NCBI RefSeq assembly: GCF_003334815.1
Contig: NZ_QOWO01000005.1
Strand: one strand, 5' to 3'
DNA length: 64,000 nucleotides
DNA from: Escherichia coli
GTDB lineage: Bacteria > Pseudomonadota > Gammaproteobacteria > Enterobacterales > Enterobacteriaceae
In this document: piece by piece, positions 3,015 through 62,579 of the stretch
How positions within the stretch are numbered: the first letter of the stretch is position 1
Layout: each line of letters opens with the position of its first letter
The notes under the pieces: model-generated
The model's database searches: none
Told to the model about the DNA's origin: nothing
Seen by the model: only the letters and a program-made list of their open reading frames with translations
Made by a program: the position numbers and the translations under genes

Positions 3015-3113
3015 GCCTGATGCGCTACGCTTATCAGGCCTACACCGCTCCTGCAATATATTGAATTCTTGCGGTTTCGTAGGCCGGATAAGGCGGTCAC
3101 GCCGCATCCGGCA
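3015..3113. repeat. REP/BIME cluster (two REP units)
   Basis: gcctgatgcgctacgcttatcaggcctaca and gtaggccggataaggcggtcacgccgcatccggca; typical REP palindromes. Confidence 0.8.
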
Positions 3114-34293: not shown

Positions 34294-34370
34294 CGCCGAG
34301 AATAGAGGAAAAATTAAAGGGGAGATAAAATCCCCCCTTTTTGGTTAACTAATTGTATGGGAATGGTTAA

Positions 34371-61942: not shown

Positions 61943-61951
61943 TTATGAAAA

Positions 61952-61980
61952 TGCCGGGATTTATTCCCGGCATTTCTGAT
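61952..61980 (+). terminator. rho-independent terminator-like hairpin after tsx
   Basis: Stem tgccggga / tcccggca with loop tttat, followed by a T-rich tract. Confidence 0.6.
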
Positions 61981-62005: not shown

Positions 62006-62104
62006 GCCGGATGCGGCGTAAACGCTTTGTCCGGCCAACAAAAGCACGTAAATTCAATATATTGCTGAAATAACGTAGGCCTGATAAGCGTAGCGCATCA
62101 GGCA
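62006..62104. repeat. REP/BIME cluster (two REP units)
   Basis: gccggatgcggcgtaaacgctttgtccggcc and gtaggcctgataagcgtagcgcatcaggca. Confidence 0.75.
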
Positions 62105-62118
62105 ATTTTACGTTTTAA

Positions 62119-62466
62119 TCACTTCTTCTTGTTCATCATCGCTTTCAGGTCAGCGAATGGGTTGTACTTCGCTTCACCGACATCTTTCTGCGCATCTTCC
62201 CCTGCGATAACGGTCGTACCATACTGATCCGCTTCGGTATATTTCGAATGCTCATGATCGTGGCAATAGAGACACAACAATTCCCAGTTACTGCCATCTT
62301 CCGGGTTATTGGTATGGTCGTGATCAATGTGGTGAACGGTAAGTTCACGCAGGTTGGAATAAACAAACTCGCGGGAACAGCGACCGCAGACCCACGGATA
62401 GATTTTTAATGCTTTTTCGCGATAGCCGCTTTCTAACCGCGCATAGTTTTTTGGGATGATAGCCAT
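62119..62466 (-). CDS. yajD: HNH-nuclease-family protein of unknown function
   Basis: ORF 62119..62466 (-), 115 aa; Cys/His-rich motif (CGRCSREF...HHIDHDH...CLYCHDHEH). Confidence 0.88.
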   Translation of the reverse strand: MAIIPKNYARLESGYREKALKIYPWVCGRCSREFVYSNLRELTVHHIDHDHTNNPEDGSNWELLCLYCHDHEHSKYTEADQYGTTVIAGEDAQKDVGEAKYNPFADLKAMMNKKK

Positions 62467-62542
62467 GAAAAGTTACCTGGATGAAATGTAGGGTTACGCG
62501 CAGTTTCCCAAGATGCGGGGATTTTCGCAATCTCCATACATC

Positions 62543-62579
62543 AAAAAAAATCCCGATCTTCTGACCGGGATTTTCAACA
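62543..62579 (-). terminator. rho-independent terminator after secF
   Basis: Minus-strand transcript has stem AUCCCGGUC / GAUCGGGAU (one G-U wobble) with loop AGAA, followed by U8. Confidence 0.75.

Follow-up and report, generated by a model that had tools for sequence, protein, structure and literature searches.

YajD of Escherichia coli: a highly conserved stand-alone HNH protein with a predicted complete nuclease active site, carried in changing gene neighborhoods

Introduction

Small stand-alone HNH proteins encoded on bacterial chromosomes include Gmet_0936 (Gme HNH, PDB 4h9d) of Geobacter, a weak Mn-dependent nickase preferring damaged DNA, and HlpB (YisB) of Bacillus subtilis, which binds DNA without cutting it and interacts genetically with AddAB (PMC3765158). 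The HNH domain of EcoKMcrA (PDB 6ghc) and its fellow type IV restriction enzymes TagI and ScoMcrA are also among the closest known systems to YajD, the protein described here. Its gene, yajD, lies in a 64,000-nucleotide stretch of Escherichia coli DNA (contig NZ_QOWO01000005.1 of assembly GCF_003334815.1), which in its whole length is called the window below.

The gene and its family had been described and annotated before; the function had not. yajD is an E. coli K-12 "y-gene" with no function assigned, core in the species and equipped with a predicted complete nuclease active site, and a chromosomal nuclease under such tight conservation should have a defined target. The explanation that we favor, and advance tentatively, is that YajD is an active zinc-stabilized HNH nuclease whose terminal peptide and basic helix bring it to lesions or intermediates in DNA.

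Identity, conservation and distribution of yajD

The gene was located from the list of open reading frames (ORFs) and the RefSeq annotation of strain MG1655:
62119..62466, minus strand, yajD coding sequence, ATG to TGA with the stop codon included; 115 aa, 13.4 kDa, isoelectric point (pI) 6.1

The 721 bases around yajD are 100% identical to E. coli K-12 MG1655, where the same stretch is annotated as "yajD: HNH nuclease YajD" between tsx and secF. A preliminary description of the window, made from its letters, had noted a 115-aa protein with a compact Cys/His-rich HNH-like motif and had proposed a profile search for HNH. That search bears the motif out, with significant matches to Pfam PF01844 (HNH; aa 27-75, E=1.5e-12, model positions 1-47 of 47) and to the NCBIfam equivalog NF008448 ("YajD family HNH nuclease"; 210.3 bits against a cut-off of 87, profile coverage 2-113). 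Seventeen PHROG "HNH endonuclease" families match at E<=0.1, and a search of AFDB50 returned solely proteins named in the manner of "Putative HNH nuclease YajD". The protein is the type member of this family (NF008448 / PRK11295; "Putative HNH nuclease YajD" in UniProt) and shows no difference from it; the family name is itself an annotation by homology. The preliminary description had also called the role of yajD not well defined, allowing that a well-documented function might exist. The literature searched agrees with the former: it mentions YajD, and none of the mentions assigns a function.

Of 5426 complete E. coli genomes, 5425 carry the coding sequence exactly once (90-100% nucleotide identity), always at the same site. 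Compared with 21 other species, nonsynonymous divergence (dN) is 0.02-0.18 (0.02-0.10 within Enterobacterales) and synonymous divergence (dS) is above 1.9 or saturated; dN/dS is below 0.06 wherever dS could be estimated, dS being saturated for most of these species. The protein remains 77-97% identical where DNA identity is just 69-83%. A tiny dN beside a saturated dS indicates that yajD is under very strong purifying selection, and it evolves more slowly than most proteins. Recent horizontal transfer was considered for the 96% identity with Hafnia and rejected, because dS is saturated and the two genes are only 82% identical in nucleotides. The family is compact: in a 50%-identity library of 1.84 billion representatives it matches 291 clusters at E<=1e-10 and 640 at E<=1e-3, and its named members belong to Enterobacterales, Vibrionales, Alteromonadales, Pseudomonas, Thiothrix, Chromatiaceae and Magnetococcus.

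The HNH domain and its predicted active site

The domain occupies the middle of the protein:
62242..62388, minus strand, HNH (beta-beta-alpha-metal) domain, aa 27-75; putative Zn ligands C27, C30, C65 and C68

Conservation was assessed in an alignment of 98 diverse homologues, down to 37% identity. The residues C27, C30, C65, C68, H45, H46, H69 and H73 are present in all 98; N60 is kept in 97, H51 in 95 and D48 in 94, and N54, W61, E62 and E72 are each kept in at least 96. H49 is retained in 81 of the 98 and replaced by G, N or M in the others (17% of family members). The preliminary description had asked whether the catalytic residues are conserved, taking their loss as a sign of a structural role only. 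No such loss occurred: the canonical HNH residues are all invariant or almost invariant, and a purely structural role is therefore not indicated.

An AlphaFold2 model built on the 98-sequence alignment reached a mean predicted local distance difference test score (pLDDT) of 78, with aa 21-70 at 85-91; an earlier model from 18 close homologues (pLDDT 46) was unusable. The model places strands at residues 42-46 and 61-65 and a helix at 66-82. H46 is the last residue of the first strand, N60 precedes the second, and H69 and H73 are one helix turn apart. The predicted fold is a beta-beta-alpha-metal finger. Profile match, fold, putative general-base His, structural Asn and a metal-ligand His in the helix, all features of HNH (His-Me finger) proteins, are found together. 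The invariant pairs C27-x2-C30 and C65-x2-C68 around the hairpin, which mark the zinc-finger (CCCC) subgroup, form a predicted site of the kind that holds a structural zinc. The pattern H-H...N...H-x3-H is that of colicin DNases, and the CCCC zinc-finger HNH is that of McrA; judged from its sequence, YajD carries the full colicin/McrA-type active-site set. Because H49 is dispensable within the family and H46 is invariant, we infer that H46 is the general base.

Single-sequence and profile searches of the PDB found no solved close relative of YajD. The top matches, the C2H2 zinc fingers ZBTB17 and SALL4 (E 0.0015-0.003), share C-x2-C...H-x3-H only and were rejected. This resemblance covers YajD aa 23-55, arising from PWVC-x2-C-x3-F...L-x2-H-x3-H, and is probably chance or a convergent beta-beta-alpha likeness.

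Conserved parts outside the HNH core

Three further segments can be told apart on either side of the domain:
62398..62427, minus strand, basic N-terminal helix (GYREKALKIY), aa 14-23; conserved (mean top-residue frequency 0.73), modeled as a helix at 15-22
62173..62238, minus strand, variable acidic linker, aa 77-98; entropy 2.56 bits, pLDDT 61-66, 6 acidic residues and 1 basic
62134..62172, minus strand, conserved C-terminal peptide (A-K-Y-N-P-F-A-D-L-K-A-M-M), aa 99-111, followed by KKK

The first 13 residues are variable (mean top-residue frequency 0.38), and the core (aa 24-76) is acidic, with 9 D/E versus 4 K/R in addition to 7 His. The C-terminal peptide, which is new here, has the family consensus A-T-x-N-P-F-A-[DN]-L-K-x-[ML]-[ML]; among the 98 homologues P103 is conserved in 89%, F104 in 90%, A105 in 82% and L107 in 93%, and the model has a helix at 107-113. 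A short peptide that stays conserved beyond an unconserved linker is typical of docking motifs, so this segment could be a candidate docking motif, or else a terminal amphipathic helix.

A group that is sister to the YajD family retains the HNH core, ends in ...HSRGLLGDYL and has no NPFADL tail. Sister-group proteins P0213, P0217, P0229, P0241, P0245, P0246 and P0262 have HG[LW]IC where YajD has YPWVC. Fusion proteins were considered as hints to function and set aside: P0194 (560 aa) and other long forms come from single metagenome contigs and are likely read-through or frameshift artefacts.

A DNA-directed nuclease as the favored explanation

We propose that yajD, from its own monocistronic unit, would supply a minimal, catalytically competent HNH (His-Me finger) nuclease. 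H46 would serve as its general base, H45, H69 and H73 as metal ligands, and N60 as the brace of the hairpin. With no specificity domain, the 50-residue acidic core probably cannot find its substrate alone. It may be positioned by the basic N-terminal helix and by the C-terminal peptide (NPFADLKAMM-KKK) on its flexible linker, docking onto an unlinked host factor, and, once positioned, YajD would make single-metal-ion-dependent cuts in nucleic acid. DNA is the most likely substrate because all sequence and structure relatives of known activity are DNA nucleases, and under stress the enzyme might nick or trim DNA intermediates that are damaged or stalled. Gmet_0936, with its preference for damaged DNA, and HlpB, with its genetic interaction with AddAB, serve as analogues. 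In support, too, the only recorded phenotypes are those of Salmonella double mutants: deletion of yajD had no growth, stress or virulence phenotype, and yajD/cbpA and yajD/ychN mutants showed raised H2O2 sensitivity (PMC3878590).

Several points weigh against this explanation. The double-mutant phenotypes are weak and come from one study, and no biochemical activity of YajD is reported in the literature searched. With its pI of 6.1 the protein is mildly acidic, an unusual property in an enzyme acting on DNA. The general base may lie in another register, since a phmmer alignment to T4 endonuclease VII (E=0.008) instead pairs D48-H49 of YajD with D40-H41 of that enzyme. To our knowledge the C-terminal peptide does not follow the beta-clamp consensus QL[SD]LF. 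A repair gene is never next to yajD in the loci examined; the sole recurrent neighbor anywhere in the family is arfB, which encodes a translation factor and points to RNA or ribosomes rather than DNA (see below).

A different objection concerns cleavage itself. YajD could be a non-cutting nucleic-acid binder whose HNH fold, as in HlpB, just binds DNA or blocks another enzyme. HlpB is a stand-alone HNH-like protein of 100 aa that binds DNA cooperatively with no detectable cleavage, and the activity of Gmet_0936 is merely weak (PMC3765158); the yajD single mutant, likewise, is without phenotype (PMC3878590). However, all catalytic residues of YajD are invariant under very strong selection, which is hard to explain if the chemistry is dispensable, and the protein falls outside the HlpB family (NF058586, 13.4 bits against a cut-off of 130). 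We regard a purely binding role as improbable.

Pairing of yajD with arfB in distant relatives

Neighbors of yajD were surveyed in 176 loci, made up of the 80 nearest E. coli and 96 distant ones, whose YajD proteins are 55-77% identical to the distant query P0126 and ~45-60% identical to E. coli YajD. Across these loci arfB, a ribosome-rescue gene, is the most frequent neighbor family. It directly adjoins yajD, in the same orientation, in 10 of the 96 distant loci (10/176 overall), which represent six non-redundant contexts, and in none of the 80 loci nearest E. coli; nor is it present in the 64-kb window. The arrangements, with positions as numbered in each locus, are:
yajD then arfB, 4-nt ATGA overlap: L088-L090 (L088 5001-5842) and L094-L095 (L094 3001-3839)
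yajD then arfB, 22-34-nt gap: L103 3001-3850
yajD then arfB, 241-nt gap: L104 1793-2840
arfB then yajD: L115 and L130 3473-4348; L126 840-1688

No other gene is common to the six contexts. Within them the YajD proteins are 59-75% identical to one another and the ArfB proteins 46-62%. Both partners score above the cut-offs of their families: the ArfB proteins reach 161-184 bits on the ArfB equivalog (cut-off 100), and the HNH proteins beside arfB 164-184 bits on the YajD equivalog (cut-off 87). Genes that stay paired while everything around them, and even their order, changes are usually functionally coupled; the present pairing, confined to distant uncultured relatives, could also be a partly retained ancestral adjacency. 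We treat the observation, which is new here, as a lead.

If the pairing is functional, YajD may act on RNA at the ribosome, where it would cut mRNA on stalled ribosomes or otherwise prepare non-stop complexes for ArfB (or for transfer-messenger RNA [tmRNA] or ArfA), its basic helical C-terminal tail docking on the ribosome. The six contexts, in both orders and with no other shared gene, argue for this reading, as do the passing equivalog scores and a spacing that ranges from the ATGA overlap to 241 nt. Two of the six contexts also carry an NYN-domain (RNase-like) gene. Some His-Me finger nucleases (Serratia/EndoG type) cut RNA besides DNA. Furthermore, one report gives the nuclease for A-site codon cleavage in paused E. 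coli ribosomes as "not known" (PMC3834316). On the other side, the pairing is confined to distant uncultured relatives (0/80 near against 10/96 distant loci) and may go back to a single, partly retained ancestral adjacency; the relatives of known activity are all DNA enzymes, and the literature searched holds no paper linking ArfB with an HNH protein. We also know of no PF01844-type HNH protein with a CCCC zinc site that acts as an RNase. On balance we consider action on RNA at the ribosome rather unlikely, though it ranks second, directly after the DNA-directed explanation.

The same conserved pair, found in six contexts and both orders with no other common gene, is the reason for considering a fuller form of this proposal, namely that YajD serves translation quality control as a nuclease directed at the ribosome or at mRNA; its tail would dock on stalled ribosomes, and its cutting of the message there would create non-stop complexes for ArfB, tmRNA or ArfA. 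We hold this form to be unlikely. Were it true, YajD would become a candidate for the nuclease behind A-site or stall-associated mRNA cleavage in E. coli, and a functional ArfB link would tie an HNH nuclease to translation quality control, for which we know of no precedent. The experimental handles offered by the analysis are the docking-like C-terminal peptide, the lack of a linked partner in enterics, and the arfB pairing in distant relatives.

Gene neighborhood and mobility

The genes within 3 kb of yajD are ribD, nrdR, yajI, tsx, secF, secD and yajC. In agreement with the preliminary description, which had found yajD an orphan HNH gene lacking an adjacent methyltransferase, immunity gene or mobile-element context, none of these three was detected within 3 kb. 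In E. coli and its close relatives there is no linked partner gene, the flanks being unrelated housekeeping genes. A functional link to secDF was rejected, because only a few enteric genera have secF next to yajD and a strong terminator separates the genes.

Neighborhoods were compared in 80 genomes (L001-L080), one per species, with a group defined by at least 2 flanking ORFs in common at >=50% identity. The 80 genomes fall into 52 neighborhood groups, even as the YajD protein is 65-99% identical; this near-complete turnover is new here. The order secF-yajD-tsx occurs only in Escherichia, Salmonella, Phytobacter and Kluyvera, and Klebsiella has GH18-yajD-yeaC-msrB-gapA. In Pantoea the gene is on a pPag1-type plasmid (130-210 kb) between unrelated metabolic genes, and in Vibrio almost every species has different ordinary housekeeping neighbors. 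The "core position" given to yajD earlier thus holds for the gene, which is core in E. coli, but not for its position. Mobile-element genes and repeats are lacking from the yajD flanks of the relatives examined, with the exception of IncC plasmids, where a Vibrio-type yajD lies between qnr and ISCR1.

One such IncC plasmid is pNDM_FZP3105 of Proteus mirabilis (L083 4042-6433), whose yajD is 74.5% identical to that of E. coli and sits between qnr and a gene for an alcohol dehydrogenase, next to ISCR1 and armA; this copy is also found in plasmids of Providencia and Vibrio furnissii. The IncC yajD is apparently a piece of Vibrio chromosome captured along with qnr. A functional link to qnr was rejected, as qnr adjoins yajD in 1 of ~14 Vibrio loci and hitch-hiking on ISCR1 explains the pair instead. 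Seven PLSDB records with yajD (CP061270.1, CP099174.1, NZ_OL790696.1, NZ_CP134663.1, NZ_CP141089.1, CP082688.1 and NZ_CP076548.1) are 1.2-4.9 Mb or are linear contigs carrying core chromosomal genes (queA-tgt-yajC-secDF; gapA-msrB); they look like chromosome filed as plasmid.

Such changes of place raise the possibility of a selfish, mobile gene: yajD would encode a free-standing homing endonuclease and move between intergenic sites. Its neighborhood differs in nearly every genus and even within Vibrio, it occurs on pPag1 and IncC plasmids, a short ribosome-binding-site (RBS) block ACAGGTAA moves along with it, and its nearest phage relatives, intron-less HNH ORFs of the homing type, lie within a polymerase gene. 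The sporadic presence and the mobile or gene-splitting context of homing endonuclease genes are nonetheless not seen for yajD, which in 5425 of 5426 E. coli genomes occurs once and at the same place. The saturated dS and tiny dN indicate long vertical residence under host-level selection rather than recent spread. YajD also lacks a target-recognition domain, whereas the phage relatives bear an extra 90-aa N-terminal domain, and its flanks have no transposase, integrase or repeat, the IncC copy being explained by ISCR1 capture with qnr. A homing gene is therefore a very improbable reading. We conclude that yajD behaves as a self-contained cassette, relocated many times and kept under strong host selection.

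The structural likeness of YajD to the HNH domains of Cap5, PtuB and Cas5-HNH, together with weak PADLOC matches to the ZorE HNH models (27.5 and 24.6 bits), would allow an anti-phage defense effector like ZorE, PtuB or Cap5. The PADLOC matches, however, span the generic HNH core alone. Genes of Zorya, Septu, CBASS or CRISPR systems are adjacent in 0 of the 176 loci, and neither there nor in the window does yajD have the neighboring partner genes of a defense system. Unlike defense islands, yajD is core, single-copy and under strong purifying selection. We give the defense reading hardly any credence.

Flanking promoter region, terminators and REP elements

Upstream of yajD, the following were identified:
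62476-62478, minus strand, Shine-Dalgarno AGG of yajD, read from the sequence
62467..62545, minus strand, yajD promoter / 5' untranslated region (UTR), between the secF terminator and the ATG; it holds the block CTTGGGAAACTGCGCGTAACCCTACATTT at 62484-62512 and the Shine-Dalgarno sequence
62546..62575, minus strand, secF intrinsic terminator from the terminator scan, 13-bp stem and T run

Because this terminator lies between secF and yajD, yajD is a separate transcription unit. A block GAAACTG-N5-TAACCCTACATTT upstream of the gene is common to E. coli, Cedecea and Enterobacter sp. Ag1 (L004, L014) despite unrelated neighborhoods. No sigma-70 consensus promoter was found upstream of yajD in the promoter scan. 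A candidate sigma-32 promoter, CTTGGG-N13-CCCTACAT, matches just 10/14 against CTTGAAA/CCCCATNT; it is too weak, and no claim is made for it. On the minus strand the same consensus scan gave GTTGAAT-N13-CCCCATAT and CTTGAAA-N14-ACCCATAA at 34294 and 36502, each 12/14. These we take to be the lon and clpP heat-shock promoters, and they serve as positive controls only. Within yajD, a NusG-suppressed pause has been described (PMC10268239).

Downstream, between yajD and the convergent tsx, are:
62075..62103, minus strand, repetitive extragenic palindromic (REP) element 1, GCCTGATGCGCTACGCTTATCAGGCCTAC, in the yajD 3' UTR; a hairpin in the folded 3' UTR
62006..62036, plus strand, REP element 2, GCCGGATGCGGCGTAAACGCTTTGTCCGGCC, inverted relative to REP 1 and forming an inverted-repeat pair with it
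61949..61975, no strand assigned, GC-rich hairpin with a perfect 11-bp stem and A and T runs on its sides

The third of these was called by the terminator scan on the plus strand and was also found as an inverted repeat; it is likely a bidirectional terminator common to tsx and yajD. One report describes an intrinsic terminator downstream of yajD as validated in vitro (PMC12207403). Folding of the 182-nt 3' UTR gives -64.7 kcal/mol (z = -6.2), and the two REPs and the terminator each form a hairpin.

The 29-mer of REP 1 has an exact copy at window position 3015 and a 1-mismatch copy at 47785, where 0 are expected by chance; the core 13-mer of REP 2 recurs at 3100 and 28234. For the yajD-tsx intergenic DNA, the median number of matching places in an E. 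coli genome is 17, and the REP 2 region has a sub-threshold match to the REP-derived Rfam family naRNA4. Imperfect palindromes of ~30 nt, repeated genome-wide and paired in inverted orientation, identify a bacterial interspersed mosaic element (BIME). It is an ordinary E. coli BIME, with nothing unusual about it and no specific link to the YajD protein. The REP cluster said earlier to flank yajD is real as to its REPs, but it is small (two REPs, one BIME) and on the 3' side only. Another BIME, with both REP types together, lies at 3015-3112, ~60 kb from yajD, and a further REP copy at 47785-47813. In Salmonella Bredeney (L081 6786-6893), a gene for an Ldr-family type I toxin lies between yajD and tsx, in the position of the K-12 BIME.

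Comparison with known nucleases

No full-length YajD was found in 50,697 phage records. The best phage matches, which are also the best sequence matches outside the YajD family, cover aa 27-86 at 47-51% identity and belong to ~150-aa HNH ORFs of rV5-like phages (YP_009111209 of Av-05 and phiTE_009 of phiTE), annotated as HNH or homing endonucleases. These share VHH-I/R-DHD-x-TNN, SN-[WF]-ELLC and CH-x2-EH with YajD. They differ in their 90-aa N-terminal domain, in having R for H51, in lacking the GYREKALK helix and the NPFADL tail, and in their mobile gene-splitting context. The DNA polymerase gene of these phages is annotated in three pieces, split by HNH ORFs (Av-05, L085 63-4919; phiTE, L086 101-4128). 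Two such ORFs occur in phiTE and two in Av-05, with a third right after the last piece; among phage relatives, one of these ORFs comes closest to the YajD core, a finding that is new here. An origin from free-standing phage HNH endonucleases, or one shared with them, followed by domestication would fit these sequence matches, and the earlier suggestion of a domesticated nuclease is plausible as regards origin, the nearest phage relatives being free-standing HNH ORFs that interrupt a DNA polymerase gene.

McrA has an N-terminal reader of modified DNA and a prophage location. YajD has neither, only 26 residues preceding its HNH domain, and has the conserved C-terminal peptide instead. Colicin E9 has the residues H102, H103, N118, H127 and H131, presumably the same pattern as in YajD at nearly equal spacing. 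Unlike YajD, the colicin E9 and E7 DNases have no CCCC zinc site and are secreted toxins that need an immunity protein; yajD has no immunity gene. The profile match and C-terminal dimerization domain of the T4 endonuclease VII family (PF02945) are lacking, as are the RuvC and bridge-helix domains of RNA-guided IscB (NF040563, 20.3 bits against 175).

Gmet_0936 is 18% identical to YajD and was missed by sequence search; its last metal ligand is an Asn (N77) in place of the His of YajD, and it lacks the conserved C-terminal peptide. HlpB, like YajD, is a small stand-alone HNH-like chromosomal protein, with a proposed role in repair, but it does not cleave and is conditionally essential, whereas yajD is dispensable. 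If the ArfB link is not functional, the likeliest place for YajD is alongside Gme HNH and HlpB, among the small HNH proteins of the repair type.

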